Below are positions 8,070 through 28,382 of a stretch of 32,000 nucleotides of DNA, piece by piece. Each line of letters begins with the position of its first letter. Position 1 is the first letter of the stretch. The notes beneath the pieces were generated by a model that saw only the letters and a program-made list of their open reading frames with translations, was not told the DNA's origin and searched no databases. This stretch comes from Bellilinea caldifistulae (lineage in GTDB: Bacteria; Chloroflexota; Anaerolineae; Anaerolineales; Anaerolineaceae): the NCBI RefSeq assembly GCF_001306055.1, contig NZ_LGHJ01000020.1, positions 1 to 32,000 of the forward strand. The letters run 5' to 3'. Made by a program: the position numbers and the translations under genes.

Positions 8070-8735
8070 TCAGGCTAATGCTTCGCGGATTTTCTGTACC
8101 AGATGACTTTCGGGTACTGCGCCGACGACTTCTCCCTTGCCGCTGTTAATCACTGTGTGGGGTACGCCGGAAACGTTGAACTGGTCAGCCAGACTGTTGA
8201 ATTCCATGGCTTCGATCATTTCAGCCTCGACCATTGGGCTTTCCAGCGCCATTTGATGCGCCAGTACCACTGCCCGCGGGCAATAGGGGCAGGAAGGAGT
8301 GACGAAAACCTGCAACAGAACTTTCTGGTTCAGGTTATTCAAGAATTCGCGGGTTTCCGGTGAAAGCCCCGAATCGCGTTTGGAAACGATCAAAATATCG
8401 TTGATCAGCGAGGTGAATTCATGCCCGGCGGGGATACCCGCGTAACGAATACCAAAATCGTCCAGGTTATCACCCGATTTACCCAGAATCACAAAGCCGG
8501 GGGCTTTATCCACGTTGTACTGCCTGGCCAGCACAGCGTCCTTATTCAGGTCAAACACCTGCAGGGTCAGTTTGTCGGAAAGGGAAGTTACCTCCTCAAG
8601 TAACTGACGGGTATCTTCACAATATTCACAGGGTTCACTCTGGCTACCAAAAAAGATGATTTCAACCGGATGTACCATGCCGGTTAAAACATCCCGCACC
8701 TGATTGCGAATTTCATCGTCTAACAAATTACTCAT
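8070..8735 (-). CDS. two-domain thioredoxin-fold protein disulfide oxidoreductase (glutaredoxin-like, PDO-type)
   Basis: Two CxxC sites (CEYC and CPYC) in two Trx-like halves, as in archaeal/Aquifex PDO-type proteins. I chose the ATG at 8735 (MSNLL...), which is preceded by GGAGG with a 5-nt spacer. The track ORF begins at a TTG at 8747. Confidence 0.8.
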   Translation of the reverse strand: MSNLLDDEIRNQVRDVLTGMVHPVEIIFFGSQSEPCEYCEDTRQLLEEVTSLSDKLTLQVFDLNKDAVLARQYNVDKAPGFVILGKSGDNLDDFGIRYAGIPAGHEFTSLINDILIVSKRDSGLSPETREFLNNLNQKVLLQVFVTPSCPYCPRAVVLAHQMALESPMVEAEMIEAMEFNSLADQFNVSGVPHTVINSGKGEVVGAVPESHLVQKIREALA

Positions 8736-8785
8736 TTTATCCTCCAAAAATTTTCCATCCTCACGGGATGTCTGTTTCTATTTTA

Positions 8786-9010
8786 TCAGGTAAAGCAGCC
8801 GCCTTCACCAAATCCGCACACTGGACAGACAAGGTTGAGTAAACCGTCATAATCCATAATCCCCACTCCGCAAGCCGGGCAGGGTTTGCCGGGCTGTGCC
8901 CGGCGAAGGCTGTGGTTCTGGCTCGGTAAATCAGGTTGGAGCGTAAAAGAAAAGGTTTGGCGCTTTTTGCGGTCAAACTTTTGCCGGGCTGGTAGTTCTT
9001 TATCGCCCAT
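8786..9010 (-). CDS. small hypothetical zinc-ribbon protein
   Basis: 74 aa from the ATG at 9010 (90 aa from the TTG at 9058). Basic N-terminus and C-terminal CPACG-x12-CPVCG (two CxxC knuckles). It fills the 333-nt gap between the anti-sigma and oxidoreductase genes on the same strand. No family recognised and the start is uncertain. Confidence 0.4.
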   Translation of the reverse strand: MGDKELPARQKFDRKKRQTFSFTLQPDLPSQNHSLRRAQPGKPCPACGVGIMDYDGLLNLVCPVCGFGEGGCFT

Positions 9011-9068
9011 CCTGAATGACGGTTCCTTGATCCGGTTATTTAGATGCGTTCCCCGCAATAAAGATACA

Positions 9069-9329
9069 TCAACCCGGGTCGCGATTCAGGAACTCTTCAA
9101 GATGTAAGCGGTGAAATAAACGATGACGGATTTCCTGCGGCAGCCCCTCATCACCTGGTTGATGCTGGTACAAATCAATCGTCTTTCGCAAGGTGTTGAT
9201 TACAATCCGGCAGTTTTCGCATTCGGTGAGGTGTTGTTCGATTTGGCGGCACAATTCCGGGTTCAATTCGCCATCCACGAAATCGGAGATGGAAGAAAGT
9301 AACTGCTGACAATCCAGATGATCGCTCAT
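9069..9329 (-). CDS. soluble zinc-binding anti-sigma factor (ZAS, RsrA-like)
   Basis: 86 aa with no TM segment. H33-x3-C37-x2-C40 (HLTECENC) plus Cys7. The ATG at 9329 overlaps the sigma stop (ATGA). The 217-aa track ORF is an upstream extension running antisense-free through the sigma gene frame and is not credible. Confidence 0.8.
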   Translation of the reverse strand: MSDHLDCQQLLSSISDFVDGELNPELCRQIEQHLTECENCRIVINTLRKTIDLYQHQPGDEGLPQEIRHRLFHRLHLEEFLNRDPG

Positions 9330-9946
9330 TTTTGCTCCCATTCTTTGAGCCGCTCGGCAAAATAAAGGGATAGCTGCTGGCGCAGAAACAAGCGGGCACG
9401 CAGCAGACGTGTTTTGACGTTGGTTTCGGTCAGCCCCAACAACTCGGCGGTTTCTTTGATGGATAATCCTTCCAGATCGCGAAGGACGAAAACACCCCGC
9501 AGGGTTGCCGGTAGTTGTTGGATGGCTTGATTCAGAAAGCGACGGGATTCTTCCGAAAGCAACTCGTCTTCCGGTAAACAACACCAATCTGCAAGAATTA
9601 AGTCGTTTGATGAGGTTCCCTCGTCGGAATCCTCTTCTTCGGCGGGGGGATCGAGGGAAACATCGGGCTTTTGTTTGCGCAGGAGCATCAATGATTCGTT
9701 CACTGCAATCCGGTACAGCCATGTGGAAAGACTGGATCGGCCTTCAAATTCGGGCAGGGCGCGCATGGCTTTGAGAAAAGTTTCTTGCAAGACATCCTCA
9801 GCGTCCTGAGGGTTGTTGGTGAACTTGAGGGCAAGTCTATAGATTTTATCGGAGTAAAGATCAACCATGCGCGCCAGCTCATGCCGGTCGCCCTTCTTCA
9901 GGGCTTCCAGCGAAAGGGATGTTTCAGGGATGCTCTCGTTGTTCAT
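9326..9946 (-). CDS. ECF-type RNA polymerase sigma-70 family factor
   Basis: 206 aa. Region 2 (DAEDVLQETFLKAMRALPEF...WLYRIAVNESL) and region 4 HTH (LSIKETAELLGLTETNVKTRLLRAR), separated by an acidic linker. Confidence 0.9.
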   Translation of the reverse strand: MNNESIPETSLSLEALKKGDRHELARMVDLYSDKIYRLALKFTNNPQDAEDVLQETFLKAMRALPEFEGRSSLSTWLYRIAVNESLMLLRKQKPDVSLDPPAEEEDSDEGTSSNDLILADWCCLPEDELLSEESRRFLNQAIQQLPATLRGVFVLRDLEGLSIKETAELLGLTETNVKTRLLRARLFLRQQLSLYFAERLKEWEQK

Positions 9947-9985
9947 ACGTTTAGATGTCCTTTTTGAGCAGAAAGTTGCGTTGAA

Positions 9986-11032
9986 TCACGAGAGCGTCCA
10001 ATTGGGTAAAACATCCAGGTTGAGAGGGTGGCGTTCACCAGCGATGTAATGAAAATAACCGGCAGCGGCGATCATCGCGGCGTTATCGGTACAAAGAGAG
10101 AGCGGGGGGATATGCACCGGAAATTCGCGCTGAGATAAAAAGGCATTTCTTAAAGCTTCGTTGGCGGAAACACCGCCGGCAACCAGAATCGCCTTGGCCT
10201 GATACACCTTGGCGGCGTGAAAGGTCTTTTGGACGAGGATCTCCACCACCGCAACCTGAAAACTGGCAGCCAAATCGGCGATGGGGAGATTGCGCCCTCG
10301 GCTTTCTAAATCGCGAACGGTTCTCAATACAGCGGTTTTCAAGCCGCTGAAAGAAAAGTTCCAGGTGCCCTCCAGACGAGCGCGTGGAAAGGTGAAAGCC
10401 TGCGGATTGCCATCCTGAGCCGCTTTTTGAATGGATGGCCCGCCCGGATAAGGCAGTCCTAACAGACGGGCAACTTTATCGAAAGCCTCGCCAGCAGCAT
10501 CATCCAGGGTGCCGCCCAGGCGCTGATATTCGAGATGCTGATGAATCAAAATCAATTCAGTGTGACCGCCGGAGACCAGTAACGCCAGGAGAGGGAATTC
10601 CGGCGGCTGGGGCGGGCTGGGGGCATCTGCCGGGTACAACCAGGCCGAGTAGATATGCCCCTCCAGATGATTGACACCGATCAACGGCAGGTTTTGGGCA
10701 ATGGCCAGTCCCTTCGCCAGGTTGACGCCGATCACCAGTGAGCCAGCCAGACCGGGACCGCGCGTAACGGCGATAGCATCAATATCGGAAAGTCCCAGAT
10801 GCGCCCGTTGGAGAGCTTCGTCCACAATGGCATAGATGGTTTGGATATGCTGGCGGGATGCAACTTCAGGAAATACGCCGCCGTATTGTGCGTGGATATC
10901 CACCTGACTGGCGACTACGCTGGAAAGTAAAGCCCGGCCGTTTTCTACAACCGCTGCGGCGGTTTCATCGCAGGAAGTCTCAATACCCAGTACTCTGGCT
11001 GGCGCTAAATCAGCAGAAAATCGGCTCATCAT
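9986..11032 (-). CDS. tsaD: tRNA N6-adenosine threonylcarbamoyltransferase
   Basis: 348 aa. VLGIETSCDETAAAVV, HLEGH and the SGGHT motifs of the Kae1/Gcp/TsaD family. Confidence 0.95.
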   Translation of the reverse strand: MMSRFSADLAPARVLGIETSCDETAAAVVENGRALLSSVVASQVDIHAQYGGVFPEVASRQHIQTIYAIVDEALQRAHLGLSDIDAIAVTRGPGLAGSLVIGVNLAKGLAIAQNLPLIGVNHLEGHIYSAWLYPADAPSPPQPPEFPLLALLVSGGHTELILIHQHLEYQRLGGTLDDAAGEAFDKVARLLGLPYPGGPSIQKAAQDGNPQAFTFPRARLEGTWNFSFSGLKTAVLRTVRDLESRGRNLPIADLAASFQVAVVEILVQKTFHAAKVYQAKAILVAGGVSANEALRNAFLSQREFPVHIPPLSLCTDNAAMIAAAGYFHYIAGERHPLNLDVLPNWTLS

Positions 11033-14244: not shown

Positions 14245-14365
14245 GCGCTCATCCAGAGAGGTGGAGGGACCGGCCCGAAGAAGCCTCGGCAACCGCTGAT
14301 CCAATCAGCAGGTGCCAACTCCGGCAGAATCCGCAGAATGCGATGATTCTGGAAGATGAGAGAGC
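14245..14365 (+). promoter_or_regulatory. SAM-I (S-box) riboswitch aptamer
   Basis: CTCATCCAGAGAGGTGGAGGGACCGGCCCGAAGAAGCCTCGGCAACC...GGTGCCAACTCCGGCAG...GAAGATGAGAG matches the conserved S-box core almost base for base (compare the B. subtilis yitJ leader). P1 is CTCATC/GATGAG. Confidence 0.9.
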
Positions 14366-17954: not shown

Positions 17955-19859
17955 ATGAAAGATTCCAGGTTTTTAGATCTATTGCAAACCAGTCAACGTC
18001 CCCTGCTTTCGGATGGCGCGATGGGGACCCTGCTCAATCAACGCGGGATTTCTTTTGAGCGTTGCTTTGATGAACTTAACCTGACCGATCCAGCATTGGT
18101 AGCGTCCATTCATCGGGAATACATTGATGCCGGTTCACAAATCATCCAGACCAATACCTTTGGAGCGAACCGCTTCAAGCTTGCCCATCACGGTTTGGAG
18201 AATCAGGTTGCTGAAATCAATGCGGCTGCGGTAGAACTGGCGCGGCGGGTGGTGATGGCATCCTTCAAAGATGTGCTGATCGCCGGGGATGTCGGGCCGT
18301 TGGGGGTGCGCCTGGCTCCTTTTGGGAGGGTGCAGCCGGAACAGGCCCGTCAGGTGTTTGCCGAGCAGATTGCCGCTTTGATTGAAGCCGGCGTTGACCT
18401 GTTGATTATCGAAACCATGACAGATTTATATGAAGTCCGCGAAGCCATTGCAGCGGCACGGCAGATTAACCCGGATATCCCCGTCGTGGCTTCGATGACG
18501 TTCACCCGGGATGACCGGACCTTGTTGGGCGATGACCCGATCAAAGTAGCCCGCGGCATTCAGCAAGCCGGTGCCGATGTCATCGGAATCAACTGTTCGG
18601 GAGGCCCAAATCAAATCTTACGCATCCTCAAACAAATGCATCTTGCGTTACCGCAGGCACGCTTTTCGGTCATGCCAAACGCTGGCTGGCCCGAACAGGT
18701 TGGCGGACGAATCATGTACCCGGCTTCGCCGGAATACTTTGGCGAGTATGCACTGGCCTTCTGGCAGGCCGGAGCCAGCCTGATTGGAGGCTGCTGCGGC
18801 ACCACGCCGGGGCACATATCGGTTATGCGTCAGGCGATTGAAACCCGCCCATTAGAAAAATTCAGTAACGGCTTTTCATTAGCGGTGGTAGAAAAGGAGG
18901 AAGTCAGTCAGGAAAGACAGGCACCCACCCTGATGGCTCAGAAGTTGATGGACGGCCGCTTTCTGATTGCAGTCGAAATGGATCCGCCGCGCGGTTTGAC
19001 CACCCAAAAGTTGCTGGCTGGCTCCAGCTTGCTTGCTGAGGCAGGAGCCGATGTGATCAATGTGGCTGACAGCCCGATGGCGAGGATGCGGATGAGCCCC
19101 TGGGCGGTATGCCGGTTGATTCAGGAAAAAGTGGGTATCGAGACCGTGCTGCATTTTCCCACACGGGGACGTAACTTGCTGCGTGTGCAGGGAGATTTAC
19201 TGGCCGCTCATGCTTTGGGAGTGCGGAATGTGTTTGTGGTGATGGGAGACCCGACGGCGATTGGGGATTATCCGGACGCAATGGATAATTACGATTTGGT
19301 GCCTTCCGGATTAATTAAATTGATCAAACAGGGATTTAATGCCGGGGTAGATCATGCCGGGGTGGATATTGGACAGCCGACTTCGTTCTTTGTCGGCTGT
19401 GCATTGAACCTGACCCCCTCCAATCCGGAGAGTGAGCTTAAGAATCTGCGTCGCAAATTGAACGCCGGAGCCGACTTTATTTTGACCCAGCCGATTTATG
19501 ATCTCAAACCGGCGCTCCAATTCCTGGAGCGGATTAAGCTCGAAATTGAGGATTTCCATACACCGCTCCTGGTAGGTGTGCTACCGCTGGTTTCGGCGCG
19601 CCATGCTGCCTTTCTCCAGCATGAAGTTCCCGGTGTGAACATACCTCAGGAAATCCACGACCGCATGGTTTCGGCCGGCGAGCGGGCGGCTCAAACCGGC
19701 ATTGAGATTGCCTTTGAACTGATTTCCCAGATGGTTGAATTTGCTCAGGGAATTTACCTGATGCCGGCTTTCAACCGGTTTGATTATGCAGCTGAGATCA
19801 TTGAAAGAGTGCGTCAATTGGAACTGCCAGCAGAACAACAAAAATTTCCACCTGCATGA
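17955..19859 (+). CDS. bifunctional homocysteine S-methyltransferase / 5,10-methylenetetrahydrofolate reductase (YitJ-type)
   Basis: 634 aa. The N-terminal Hcy-binding domain (GAMGT..., GGCCGTTPGH) is fused to an MTHFR domain (FLIAVEMDPPRG, ...TQPIYD...). It starts 9 nt after metH. Confidence 0.9.
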   Translation: MKDSRFLDLLQTSQRPLLSDGAMGTLLNQRGISFERCFDELNLTDPALVASIHREYIDAGSQIIQTNTFGANRFKLAHHGLENQVAEINAAAVELARRVVMASFKDVLIAGDVGPLGVRLAPFGRVQPEQARQVFAEQIAALIEAGVDLLIIETMTDLYEVREAIAAARQINPDIPVVASMTFTRDDRTLLGDDPIKVARGIQQAGADVIGINCSGGPNQILRILKQMHLALPQARFSVMPNAGWPEQVGGRIMYPASPEYFGEYALAFWQAGASLIGGCCGTTPGHISVMRQAIETRPLEKFSNGFSLAVVEKEEVSQERQAPTLMAQKLMDGRFLIAVEMDPPRGLTTQKLLAGSSLLAEAGADVINVADSPMARMRMSPWAVCRLIQEKVGIETVLHFPTRGRNLLRVQGDLLAAHALGVRNVFVVMGDPTAIGDYPDAMDNYDLVPSGLIKLIKQGFNAGVDHAGVDIGQPTSFFVGCALNLTPSNPESELKNLRRKLNAGADFILTQPIYDLKPALQFLERIKLEIEDFHTPLLVGVLPLVSARHAAFLQHEVPGVNIPQEIHDRMVSAGERAAQTGIEIAFELISQMVEFAQGIYLMPAFNRFDYAAEIIERVRQLELPAEQQKFPPA

Positions 19860-26288: not shown

Positions 26289-26960
26289 ATGTGTGGTCGG
26301 TTTTCACTTGCGCTCGACCCCGAAGAATTACGCGAGGCATTCGGTTTGATTGAAACCCCGATTGGTTGGAATCCCCGCTATAACATTGCTCCTACTCAAC
26401 CCGTGGCGGTCATCACGGATGCCGTTCAGCCAAGACTGGATTACATGCGCTGGGGATTGGTGCCCTCCTGGGCGAAGGACATTTCCATCGGGCAGAAAAT
26501 GATCAATGCTCGTGCCGAGACCATTCGGGAAAAACCCTCTTTCCGTTCGGCTTTCAACCGACGGCGGTGTCTGATTCCAGCCGACGGCTTCTTTGAATGG
26601 AAAAAAGCCGGAATGGCCGCCAAATCGGCAGCGGAACCCTATTACTTTCGATTGAGAGGTGGACTGCCGTTTGCGTTTGCCGGTTTGTGGGAGGTCTGGC
26701 AATCGCCGGAAGGCAGTGAGTTGAAGACCTGCACCATTTTAACCACCGATGCAAACGAACTGGTCGGGGCGGTTCATCCTCGCATGCCGGTGATGTTTGA
26801 AGTAAGTAAAGCATGGCGATGGCTGGAATCACTGCCGGCTGATGAATTAATGGCTTTGTTAAAGCCGTTTCCGGTTGAAAATATGGAATCTTTTCCGGTC
26901 AGCCGTCTGGTGAATGATCCAAAACGGGATGAACCGGTGTGCATCCAACCCCTGGGGTAA
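26289..26960 (+). CDS. SOS response-associated peptidase (SRAP/YedK, abasic-site crosslinking protein)
   Basis: Starts MCGRFS (catalytic Cys2) with an AGGAG SD. RYNIAPTQ and PADGFFEW motifs. The track ORF from 26112 is an upstream extension. Confidence 0.9.
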   Translation: MCGRFSLALDPEELREAFGLIETPIGWNPRYNIAPTQPVAVITDAVQPRLDYMRWGLVPSWAKDISIGQKMINARAETIREKPSFRSAFNRRRCLIPADGFFEWKKAGMAAKSAAEPYYFRLRGGLPFAFAGLWEVWQSPEGSELKTCTILTTDANELVGAVHPRMPVMFEVSKAWRWLESLPADELMALLKPFPVENMESFPVSRLVNDPKRDEPVCIQPLG

Positions 26961-27000
26961 TTTTCAGCCGTCAAACCTCAACACAATTTGCCGTTTTTCC

Positions 27001-27029
27001 TTGACCGGTCAGGGGGGTGGTGGTAAAAT
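27001..27029 (+). promoter_or_regulatory. near-consensus sigma-70 promoter of tRNA-Glu
   Basis: TTGACC (27001-27006), 17-nt spacer, TAAAAT (27024-27029). It ends 12 nt upstream of the tRNA 5' end. Confidence 0.55.
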
Positions 27030-27041
27030 CAGCCCGTTCAT

Positions 27042-27114
27042 GCCCCCATCGTCTAGGGGACCAGGACGCAGCCCTTTCAAGGCTAAAACGGGGGTTCGAA
27101 TCCCCCTGGGGGCA
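27042..27114 (+). tRNA. tRNA-Glu (anticodon UUC)
   Basis: Manual cloverleaf. Acceptor GCCCCCA/TGGGGGC (7 bp), T-arm GGGGG-TTCGAAT-CCCCC, anticodon stem CAGCC/GGCTA with loop CT-TTC-AA, 4-nt variable loop, discriminator A. No encoded CCA. Close to E. coli tRNA-Glu in the D and anticodon regions. Confidence 0.9.
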
Positions 27115-27120
27115 CAGGGC

Positions 27121-27150
27121 AGACCTGCCGGAAGGCAGGTCTTTTATTTA
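27121..27150 (+). terminator. intrinsic terminator after tRNA-Glu
   Basis: AGACCTGCC-GGAA-GGCAGGTCT (9-bp stem, tetraloop) followed by TTTATTTA. Confidence 0.8.
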
Positions 27151-27250
27151 TCCGGGCAGAGCAGCCCTTTCATGCCATCGAGACAGGATCAGGCTAAAAC
27201 GGGGTTTCGACGACAGCCCTCGCAGGGGGATCCCCCTGGGGGCACAGGGC

Positions 27251-27280
27251 AGACCTGCCGGAAGGCAGGTCTTTTATTTA
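27251..27280 (+). terminator. terminator hairpin of repeat unit 1
   Basis: Identical AGACCTGCC-GGAA-GGCAGGTCT + TTTATTTA. Confidence 0.65.
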
Positions 27281-27380
27281 TCCGGGCAGAGCAGCCCTTT
27301 CATGCCATCGAGGCAGGATCAGGCTAAAACGGGGGTTCGACGGCAGCCCTCGCAGGGGGATCCCCCTGGGGGCACAGGGC

Positions 27381-27409
27381 AGACCTGCCGGAAGGCAGGT
27401 CTTTTTTTA
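27381..27409 (+). terminator. terminator hairpin of repeat unit 2
   Basis: Identical hairpin followed by TTTTTTA. Confidence 0.65.
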
Positions 27410-27511
27410 TATCCGGGCAGAGCAGCCCTTTCATGCCATCGAGGCAGGATCAGGCTAACACGGGGTTTCGACGACAGCCCTCGCAGGGGGATCCCCCTGG
27501 GGGCACAGGGC

Positions 27512-27540
27512 AGACCTGCCGGAAGGCGGGTCTTTTTTTA
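27512..27540 (+). terminator. terminator hairpin of repeat unit 3
   Basis: Same hairpin with one A-to-G change (27528) that converts a U-A pair to U-G and so preserves pairing. Followed by TTTTTTTA. Confidence 0.6.
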
Positions 27541-27642
27541 TATCCGGGCAGAGCAGCCCTTTCATGCCATCGAGACAGGATCAGGCTAAAACGGGGGTTC
27601 GACGGCAGCCCTCGCAGGGGGATCCCCCTGGGGGCACAGGGC

Positions 27643-27664
27643 AGACCTGCCGGAAGGCAGGTCT
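27643..27664 (+). terminator. terminator-like hairpin of repeat unit 4 (no adjacent T-tract)
   Basis: Identical hairpin, but the repeat ends at the stem. The following sequence is GGATCCTTCCTCTTTT. Confidence 0.4.
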
Positions 27665-27749
27665 GGATCCTTCCTCTTTTGGGATGCGGGGTATGTCTCA
27701 ATCAAACCCCAGAAGCGTATAAACTCGGTTTCGTCATTTTAAATACTTC

Positions 27750-28382
27750 ATGATAAACTTAAAGGCTATGTGGCGTTGGATCATTGGATGGGTGGTTTGG
27801 TTTTTCATCCTGCCTGCTTCGGTCGTGGCTCAGGCCGATGAAGGCATTTTGATTCTGTCCCCTGCTGACCAGCAGGTCTTGCAGGGGGTCATTGAAGTTC
27901 AAGCGCGGGTGTCTTTCGATGATGTGCAAACCTATGAACTGCTATTCGGGTACAGTGGGGATACGGATGAACGGAACCTGTTTCTGCTGACTCAAGGAAA
28001 CAGTATTCCGGATTCGCAACTGCGCCACCGTTGGGATACCACCCTCATACCGGATGGGGATTATCGGCTTGTCTTACGGGTATATCTTATAAATGGAGAG
28101 AGACGCGAAGCAGTTGTGGAAACGGTCAGAGTGCGTAATTATTCGGTAGTGGAATCACCTACGGCAAGCGGTCTCGTCCTTTCAACCGCACCGGTCGTCC
28201 CAACGCCGCCGGAAACACCAACGCCCCTGCCGGTCACATCCACCCCGCCCAAACCCAACCCCGGCAGTGTTCAACCTGTTCAGTGGACGACCAGTGTATT
28301 GCGCAGTGTTGGTATCACGATTGTGTTGTTTGTGATCCTGGGCGGGTTGATCAGGCTGCGCAGGCCGAAAAAGCGCCGATAA
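27750..28382 (+). CDS. hypothetical secreted protein with C-terminal membrane anchor
   Basis: 210 aa. Signal peptide ending VVAQA, a ~125-aa beta-rich domain, a Pro/Thr linker (PTPPETPTPLPVTSTPPKPNP), and a terminal TM helix plus basic tail RLRRPKKRR. No family recognised. An alternative start is the ATG at 27768. Confidence 0.6.
   Translation: MINLKAMWRWIIGWVVWFFILPASVVAQADEGILILSPADQQVLQGVIEVQARVSFDDVQTYELLFGYSGDTDERNLFLLTQGNSIPDSQLRHRWDTTLIPDGDYRLVLRVYLINGERREAVVETVRVRNYSVVESPTASGLVLSTAPVVPTPPETPTPLPVTSTPPKPNPGSVQPVQWTTSVLRSVGITIVLFVILGGLIRLRRPKKRR

Follow-up and report, generated by a model that had tools for sequence, protein, structure and literature searches.

What are the four tandem units that follow the only tRNA gene recognised in a 32,000-nucleotide (nt) stretch of the genome of Bellilinea caldifistulae (contig NZ_LGHJ01000020.1, positions 1 to 32,000 of the forward strand; hereafter the window)? 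Each unit resembles part of the tRNA-Glu gene ahead of it, and an earlier note, made from the letters alone, described the units as degenerate copies of that whole gene. The reading favoured here, at a probability of about 0.5, is that they may be a selected module comparable to the tRNA-linked repeats (TLRs) of Escherichia coli, which would be homogenised with the gene by recombination, transcribed by read-through and folded into a tRNA-like small RNA (sRNA).

The locus reads on one strand as promoter, gene, terminator and then four units, each with a copy of the terminator (the fourth with its hairpin only). The single tRNA call in the window is tRNA-Glu(ttc) at 27042–27115 (ARAGORN); positions 27042–27114 (+) match the Rfam tRNA family at 59.5 bits, no other family in the region exceeds its threshold, and the gene is a functional tRNA-Glu(UUC) in which CCA is not encoded. 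The sole sigma-70-like promoter in a scan of 26900–27800 is TTGACC-17-TAAAAT at 27001–27029 (+), which has a TG ahead of the second hexamer and is conserved in relatives; the same scan found no promoter belonging to any unit. Terminator-like sites are predicted at 27121–27142, 27251–27272, 27381–27402 and 27512–27533, all four made of a 9-bp stem, a GGAA loop and a T tract, and Tandem Repeats Finder (TRF) reports a 131-bp period over 27100–27664 (4.3 copies, 96% matches, score 1046). The gene, its promoter and its T-tract hairpin are borne out by these scans, and the unit starts of the earlier note (27151, 27281, 27412 and 27543) are correct; its statement that every unit repeats the terminator holds for units 1–3, which are followed by full intrinsic terminators, and fails for unit 4, where the hairpin at 27643–27664 has no T tract. 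Within the window, a probe for the shared 3′ block has five matches and a probe for the unit-specific 5′ block four (none in shuffles), and neither has a match elsewhere in the 32 kb. The units give no ARAGORN call and no Rfam tRNA match above the gathering score, and at E≤10 Rfam returns for them chance-level matches only (AS-pc02, suhB and others), which were rejected; that they are not decoding tRNAs and lack promoters of their own, as the note had supposed, is supported by these results.

The array is not an assembly artefact. The window matches contig DF967971.1 of NCBI assembly GCA_001050215.2. The region 26900–27800 is present exactly in loci L001 and L083 (the L numbers designate loci throughout), and the array recurs in two contigs of one independent metagenome whose flanks are identical to the window: L096 carries the SOS-response-associated peptidase gene (SRAP, Pfam PF02586; immediately upstream of tRNA-Glu), tRNA-Glu, unit 1 and the start of unit 2, and in L085 at least three units precede the downstream gene that is found in the window. 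An independent short-read assembly of the same sequence (L002) breaks at window position 27092, the start of the repeated sequence; because contigs break at the locus, it is a practical warning for annotation and for short-read assembly.

Across all clades a unit is built of five parts. The first, CA[G/A]CCCTTTCA, corresponds to tRNA-Glu nt 27–37, that is, the anticodon-stem 5′ strand and the loop through A37; in the window this 11-mer is CAGCCCTTTCA, identical to the gene at 11 of 11 positions. It is followed by a hairpin (H1) with a stem of 4–5 bp and a loop of 3–5 nt, by a linker of 4–5 nt, by tRNA nt 38–73 (AGGCTAAAAC, the T arm and TGGGGGCA) and, in most genomes (not L007 or L008), by a copy of the local gene's trailer and terminator. 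Nucleotides 1–26 of the tRNA are absent, and AGGCT, the anticodon-stem 3′ strand, is present. The set of lesions described earlier, in which part of the acceptor 5′ strand, most of the D loop and the entire anticodon arm were missing, rests on an ambiguous alignment: relatives show that the supposed leader is the 5′ half of the anticodon arm and that nt 1–26 are what is missing. Nor is the anticodon arm wholly gone, as nt 27–37 and AGGCT remain, and H1 is a conserved, structured insertion and not debris.

Some units carry a second hairpin insertion (L-type), and those without it (S-type) keep the T arm intact and recur with a period near 110 nt; the two types alternate in L090. In the window clade the second insertion lies after nt 58 of the T loop and is 19 nt long (CCCTC-GCA-GRGGG), and elsewhere it lies after nt 55 (L007, L008 and L095) or between the T stem and the acceptor strand (L097). 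Insertion sizes are mostly about 18–21 nt, with ~45 nt in L095; the L097 insertion (TACCC-TAT-GGGTA-TAATA) is built like H1, and H1 itself is flanked by TCA...TCA in several clades. There are three differing hairpin insertions besides H1 at 37/38, and taking each out restores exact tRNA-Glu nt 27–73 (with one mismatch, in one L008 unit). The change of CAGCCC to CAACCC, a G-to-A substitution at unit nt 3, is found in four separate lineages and for the most part in distal units (L087 unit 2, the last unit of L092, L004 unit 3 and L007 unit 1).

All four units of the window are L-type and lie on the plus strand, and their cores were scored with a covariance model, R1, built from five units. Terminator T0 of the gene (27121–27151) has the 9-bp stem, the GGAA loop and an interrupted U tract (TTTATTTAT). 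The core of unit 1 (27162–27244; 71.5 bits) comprises the 11-mer at 27162–27172, H1 at 27173–27185, where an A at 27183 weakens the stem, the linker at 27186–27190, tRNA nt 38–48 at 27191–27200, the T-loop insertion at 27211–27229 and the T-stem 3′ strand with the acceptor 3′ strand at 27232–27244; terminator T1 (27251–27281) has the same sequence as T0. Unit 2 (27292–27374; 85.8 bits) has an intact H1 at 27303–27315 and its T-loop insertion at 27341–27359, and it is followed by terminator T2 (27381–27411), whose U tract is longer (TTTTTTTATAT). Unit 3 (27423–27505; 75.2 bits) also has an intact H1 (27434–27446), with the T-loop insertion at 27472–27490 and a change of AAAAC to AACAC; in terminator T3 (27512–27542) one A-to-G change gives a G-U pair in the stem, and the U tract is long. 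Unit 4 (27554–27636; 79.5 bits) has its T-loop insertion at 27603–27621 and an H1 (27565–27577) weakened by a G-to-A change that it shares with unit 1. The last copy of the terminator hairpin (27643–27664), which has no U tract and is absent from the terminator list, is followed by GGATCC... and marks the right-hand end of the array. Open reading frames (ORFs) across the repeats (26914–27327, 27017–27589 and 27433–27753) were rejected as coding because the period of 131 is not a multiple of 3, and because unit lengths in relatives switch between 110, 131 and ~150 nt and the translated products are repetitive and of low complexity.

We favour an origin of the unit from nt 27–73 with inserted hairpins over an origin from the whole gene with its leader and an internal deletion, because the 11-mer is identical to nt 27–37 at 11 of 11 positions and is conserved where gene leaders differ: in L004–L008, L087, L093, L095 and L097 the leaders are unrelated to the 11-mer, which is invariant there. 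Pointing the other way are GGGGA(C) motifs resembling the D loop, which occur in the H1 of some clades, and the unit-like leader of the window clade, the only clade in which the gene leader resembles the unit (CAGCCCGTTCAT-GCC against the unit 5′ element CAGCCCTTTCAT-GCC). That likeness, seen at window 27031–27044 and at the equivalent positions in L003, L005, L084, L089–L091 and L096, suggests sequence exchange from unit to gene leader or a requirement that the two may share.

Relatives were found by searching with the upstream SRAP protein against species-representative genomes, which gave SRAP followed by tRNA-Glu in L003–L011 and L013; the nearest relatives found carry the label Bellilinea. 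One to three degenerate tRNA-Glu-like units follow the gene in L003–L008 (SRAP 61–88% identical), and a pattern made from the conserved parts returned 14 further metagenome loci with 1–4 units (L084–L097). The module is present in 1–4 copies in about 20 genomes of Bellilinea and Anaerolineaceae and metagenome contigs (L003–L008 and L084–L097), and 38 unit instances were catalogued in total. When R1 was searched over 485 kb of related loci, it matched units (37–96 bits) and the 3′ parts of true tRNA-Glu genes (36–53 bits), with zero matches away from tRNA-Glu; a cluster of tRNA-Phe, tRNA-Gly and tRNA-Cys genes in L087 has no such units. On the choice between locus-specific and dispersed sequence raised by the earlier note, the units are locus-specific, and a dispersed repeat of the miniature inverted-repeat transposable element or repetitive extragenic palindromic (REP) type was rejected, there being no copy elsewhere in the window or in the 485 kb. 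Downstream genes differ between clades of unit-bearing relatives, and the units stay with tRNA-Glu. A unit-specific 23-mer (GCAGGGGGATCCCCCTGGGGGCA) gave no match in genomes and metagenome contigs, a query that was too specific, with the source genome evidently outside the species-representative set. Viral contigs, a phage collection and a plasmid collection contained no unit-like sequence, which lends no support to a phage attachment site (attP) on a mobile element.

Other arrangements were recorded at individual loci. In L088 (~10577–10730, reverse strand) units lie in a locus where ARAGORN finds no tRNA-Glu gene, and the 3′ end of one of them continues into a histidine-kinase-like reading frame, which could be a rearrangement or a chimeric metagenome contig. 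In L094 (1–130) the tRNA 3′ end is TTCGATTCCCCCTGGTGGCA, with a variant T loop and acceptor strand, and the single unit is truncated within the T loop and fused to the leader of the downstream gene. L011 (6870–7230), a Longilinea metagenome-assembled genome without tRNA-like units, has after the tRNA-Glu terminator two copies, ~190 nt apart, of a repeat starting GTAGGGGCGAGGCGGG..., which from its sequence we read as probably REP-like. In L093 (~8230–10950; also L086), two ORFs of 321 and 255 aa without Pfam matches lie between unit 1 and units 2–3; just past that array are an ORF of 88 aa with a sub-threshold HTH_17 Pfam match, which we read as a possible excisionase-like protein, and a second ORF without a database match, which we take for a lookalike of a transposase zinc-finger fragment.

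The tRNA-derived parts of the units evolve together with the gene. In every genome the T stem of the units is that of the local gene, and five such stems occur (GGGGG/CCCCC, GAGAG/CTCTC, CAGGG/CCCTG, CCCAG/CTGGG and CAGAG/CTCTG); trailer and terminator are likewise common to gene and units in most genomes, the units of L007 and L008 having their own. Copy number also changes between close strains, L090 having four units and L091 two between the same promoter and the same downstream flank. L003, with the same promoter and downstream gene as these two, has at least one unit, and the sequence upstream of the promoter in L090 is unrelated and is not the SRAP gene. In L085 several unit positions are unlike those of the window, although the flanks are identical. 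The loop of the last array hairpin in L085 (reverse strand; equivalent to window 27648–27660) is inverted from GGAA to TTCC (CTGCC-TTCC-GGCAG against CTGCC-GGAA-GGCAG) beside an identical 200-nt flank; to judge from the sequence, this is the signature of hairpin loop inversion or template switching. The match of T stems and trailers to the local gene, the copy-number polymorphism and the L085 differences therefore point to frequent recombination between gene and unit and between units. They show that copy number is altered, and the tRNA-derived parts are kept the same as in the gene, by unequal crossing-over and conversion with the parental gene through about 45–80 nt of 3′ sequence that gene and units share.

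A second part of the unit is conserved where the gene offers no template. Since MAFFT put the 4-bp and 5-bp classes of H1 out of register, a covariance-model alignment (A5) and an alignment-free check were used. In A5 the two outer pairs of H1 are UA:25/CG:6 and GC:18/AU:11/CG:2/UG:1, and paired cells amount to 96.5%; the figure is 85.1% in shuffles, none of 500 being as high, and 50–71% with slid partners. By the alignment-free check, 14 of the 15 H1 variants can form an anchored stem of 4 bp or more, compared with 17% for shuffled sequences. The unit-specific 29 nt (11-mer, H1 and linker) are 93–100% identical between window-clade genomes, against 58–75% for the 50 nt upstream of the promoter, 41–67% for the DNA from array to next gene and 31–75% for the 12-nt spacer. 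Of these 29 nt, 18 (H1 and linker) are not represented in the tRNA gene, which means that conversion from that gene cannot account for how well they are conserved, and we infer that the unit-specific part is probably under purifying selection, with template-switch mutation as a factor that could have contributed to the compensatory changes. The similarity among units thus goes beyond simple neutral decay, as the earlier note had argued, and both homogenisation (a T stem equal to that of the local gene) and selection (H1 covariation and the 93–100% identity of the 29 nt) apply.

The predicted fold of the unit is reminiscent of a reduced tRNA. For six S-type units RNAalifold predicts a pseudo-acceptor stem GCCCUU/GGGGGC with two G-U pairs, H1 and the T stem, and most units give the same picture when folded singly. 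An S-type unit aligns along its whole length, from GCCCUUU, to the Rfam tRNA model at 19.3 bits, the best S-type score and below the 29-bit cutoff; this, the lack of any ARAGORN or Rfam call and the absence of nt 1–26 led to rejection of the units as functional tRNAs. An alternative pairing of CAGCC with GGCUA would give an anticodon-like stem with H1 branching from its loop. A pseudoknot or kissing interaction of the H1 loop (AUCGA) with the linker or the T loop was rejected because the pairing is not conserved across clades, and folds of the entire array and of whole units are dominated by inter-unit and palindrome pairings and are uninformative on the unit fold. The tRNA-like domains of tmRNA, bacterial YrlA and eukaryotic mascRNA are substrates for tRNA end-processing enzymes. 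Like these, the predicted unit has an acceptor-type stem and a T arm, a reduced D-arm analogue and no anticodon arm; unlike them, it has a pseudo-acceptor stem with two G-U pairs and no covariation support, and the T loop is disrupted in many units. The sole match among the Rfam families for such domains is mascRNA-menRNA with an S-type unit (17.2 bits, well below threshold), with none for tmRNA or YrlA.

The arrangement of the array is shared with a described class. E. coli has 22 TLRs at ten loci, 1–5 per locus, behind tRNA or rRNA genes, and 18–19 bp at the 3′ end of each are those of the 3′ end of the upstream gene; RrA, RrB and RrF, behind rrnA, rrnB and rrnD, each stand between two terminators and arise by read-through followed by processing, and the function of TLRs is still unknown (PMC8144298). 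The earlier note, which recognised no described element class with such a layout, is not borne out on this point, given these repeats (PMC8144298). Like them, the Bellilinea array lies directly downstream of a stable-RNA gene on the same strand, and each unit repeats the 3′ end of that gene, ATCCCCCTGGGGGCA with trailer and terminator being identical in the gene and all units (27100–27142 against four copies); in S-type units of relatives the identity to the gene spans nt 38–73. The four copies here and the 1–4 in relatives fall within the 1–5 of TLRs, and the tandem units are of similarly high identity (131 bp × 4.3 at 96%, against 178 bp × 3.1 at 95% in E. coli tyrT; the K-12 tyrT–tyrV locus was checked and has four RtT (RF00391) matches at 133–137 bits). 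Terminators stand on either side, and E. coli TLRs, where tested, are expressed by read-through and processing (PMC8144298). The two differ in that Bellilinea units have no sequence or structure homology to RtT, for which 26800–27900 gave no match at E≤10 in a search whose positive control, tyrT–tyrV, scored 133–137 bits; in that their tRNA-derived part is far longer (nt 27–73 against 18–19 nt), hairpin-interrupted and predicted to fold like a tRNA; in that each carries a copy of the gene's own intrinsic terminator; and in that they belong to the phylum Chloroflexi and are seen with tRNA-Glu only. On these grounds of layout and sequence, the array is best regarded as an analogue, and not a homologue, of E. 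coli TLRs, a Chloroflexi variant of tRNA-linked repeats. The more distant Anaerolineaceae L009 (6804–6915) and L010 (6807–6910) have a mini-repeat with conserved ATAACTTGACCTGA, a T arm minus most of its loop, the acceptor 3′ strand and a terminator copy, which is nearer the E. coli format (about 17–19 nt of 3′ identity).

On the reading of the units as a selected, TLR-like module, the 3′ two-thirds of tRNA-Glu would have given rise to a unit of nt 27–37, an inserted D-arm-like hairpin (H1) and nt 38–73, with a second hairpin in or near the T arm of some units, and this module sits behind the tRNA-Glu terminator with a copy of the gene's trailer and terminator. Having no promoter of their own, the units would depend for transcription on the tRNA-Glu promoter and on read-through of the terminators nearest the gene, the ones with interrupted U tracts. 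Each unit would then fold compactly like a tRNA, with GCCCUU/GGGGGC as pseudo-acceptor stem, H1 standing in for the D arm, and the T arm, and its tRNA-type 3′ end and trailer may recruit tRNA end-processing to yield a stable RNA of about 65–85 nt. More speculatively, the unit RNA might act as a decoy or regulator on some tRNA-Glu-binding factor. Tentative as it is, a further proposal is that the units may be an undescribed family of tRNA-Glu-derived, tRNA-like sRNAs, made by read-through, matured by the tRNA end-processing machinery and serving as decoys or regulators for a factor that reads the anticodon-loop sequence together with the T-arm/acceptor end; candidates would be a synthetase, glutamyl-tRNA reductase, a modification enzyme or an anticodon-directed toxin.

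Several observations weigh against this interpretation. Units are truncated in L094 and L088 and absent from L011 and L013, and the array varies between near-identical strains with identical flanks, which indicates loose constraint on any single copy. In the window the H1 stem is weakened in units 1 and 4, and compensatory changes in short hairpins are also possible through DNA template switching, the L085 loop inversion showing that such events happen here. The pseudo-acceptor stem is invariant and hence neither supported nor refuted by covariation; stem-strengthening U-to-C changes are never seen, which suggests that the 11-mer is constrained as sequence and not as helix, and an upstream spacer offers an alternative partner for CAGCCC in the window clade. 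The 19-nt T-loop insertion present in all four window units would be expected to hinder RNase P, RNase Z and the CCA-adding enzyme in recognising them, and four consecutive terminators should leave little transcript for distal units.

Some of the same facts bear on a neutral origin, in which a one-time partial duplicate of tRNA-Glu would have become a pseudogene array that is regenerated and homogenised by crossing-over and conversion with the essential gene, its hairpins arising by template-switch mutation. Such an account, which we consider unlikely, fits the constant identity of tRNA-derived unit parts to the local gene, the copy-number differences between close strains, the degenerate or truncated units (L093c, L094, L088 and L007 unit 2), the weakened H1 of two window units, the hairpin-templated mutation to which the L085 loop inversion points and the unit-free relatives L011 and L013. 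It sits poorly with the 18 nt of H1 and linker, which have no gene donor and yet are 93–100% identical beside flanks at 41–75%, and with the 11-mer, which is cut off from the long homology tract by heterology and yet hardly varies among clades in which the intergenic DNA does not align; moreover, conversion tracts across the region should yield a unit without H1, but the R1 search found none.

A function at the level of DNA or transcription is decidedly unlikely: stacked terminators would serve as insulators, or palindromes (TGCC-N5-GGCA and similar) as sites for a dimeric protein, or both, with the tRNA-like remainder hitch-hiking. Every unit does keep a terminator copy, with stronger U tracts distally, the units are rich in inverted repeats (H1, GGGCTG-AG-CAGCCC and GGGGGATCCCCC), and symmetric half-site changes in a palindromic operator would mimic covariation. 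Insulation, however, needs terminators only, whereas the best-conserved sequence is the non-terminator 29 nt, which a pure stacked-terminator role of the kind once suggested for this array leaves unexplained, and terminator sequences differ freely between genomes. Downstream genes change between clades while the units stay with tRNA-Glu, a loop of 3–5 nt in H1 is unusual for an operator, and no candidate regulator is linked to the locus.

Very improbable is the view that the units are attachment-site scars or landing pads, remnants of repeated integration at the tRNA-Glu anticodon loop, in which each element brought or left a 3′ tRNA fragment. For integrases acting at the anticodon loop, nt 27 is the usual start of identity blocks, and the units begin exactly there; L009 and L010 duplicate sequence from the T loop to the 3′ end, synteny breaks directly after the array in differing clades, and in L093 two foreign ORFs lie inside the array, followed by the ORF with the sub-threshold HTH_17 match and by the zinc-finger lookalike. 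Fragments of tRNA genes left by integrating elements have been described (PMC9897764), and the array resembles them in having partial copies beside an intact tRNA, starting at the anticodon stem, and a synteny break at the tRNA gene. It differs in that its units are head-to-tail repeats at a 110–131-bp period with no element DNA or integrase between or beside them (none in the window or in ~5.7 kb downstream in L004, L006, L007 and L008), and in that H1 interrupts the anticodon-loop core, so that no plain attR remains. The pattern is also absent from the viral contigs, phages and plasmids searched, and integration would not hold H1 and linker, the conserved unit-specific sequence, under constraint.

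Scarcely credible is an archaeal-style disrupted tRNA, with hairpins at 37/38, in the T loop and at 65/66 that would behave like introns and be removed to let the 3′ part pair with a 5′ part encoded elsewhere. Removal of each insertion does leave an exact copy of nt 27–73, and insertions of about 18–21 nt (~45 nt in L095) sit at positions known for archaeal introns. By inspection of 15 H1 variants, however, no bulge-helix-bulge motif common to the clades emerges: the central 4-bp helix is missing in most of them, and L004 and L006 are the sole loci whose linker is complementary to the anticodon. No 5′ part came to light, an intact and functional tRNA-Glu gene adjoins, and the splicing endonuclease is not known from bacteria.

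Elsewhere in the window, a SAM riboswitch aptamer (14246–14362, plus strand; RF00162, 91.2 bits) lies upstream of methionine-synthase-like genes seen in L001, and a short tandem repeat of a 15-bp unit lies at 19339–19367 (1.9 copies, TRF score 51).

To our knowledge, the function of TLRs has been unknown since 1978, and their study has been almost confined to E. coli. The array described here is a second, independent data point on that question, from a remote phylum and of the same architecture without homology. Bellilinea units add a larger and clearly structured tRNA-derived core, together with comparative evidence of constraint (covariation, and conservation well above that of the flanks), and they offer concrete features in the invariant 11-mer (which equals the 5′ half of the anticodon arm), in H1 and in a 3′ end of tRNA type. 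They also document concerted evolution between an essential tRNA gene and its satellite copies. If the proposal of an undescribed family of tRNA-like sRNAs is true, the independent rise of such repeats in Chloroflexi and in E. coli would make TLRs a general bacterial device and not an E. coli curiosity.

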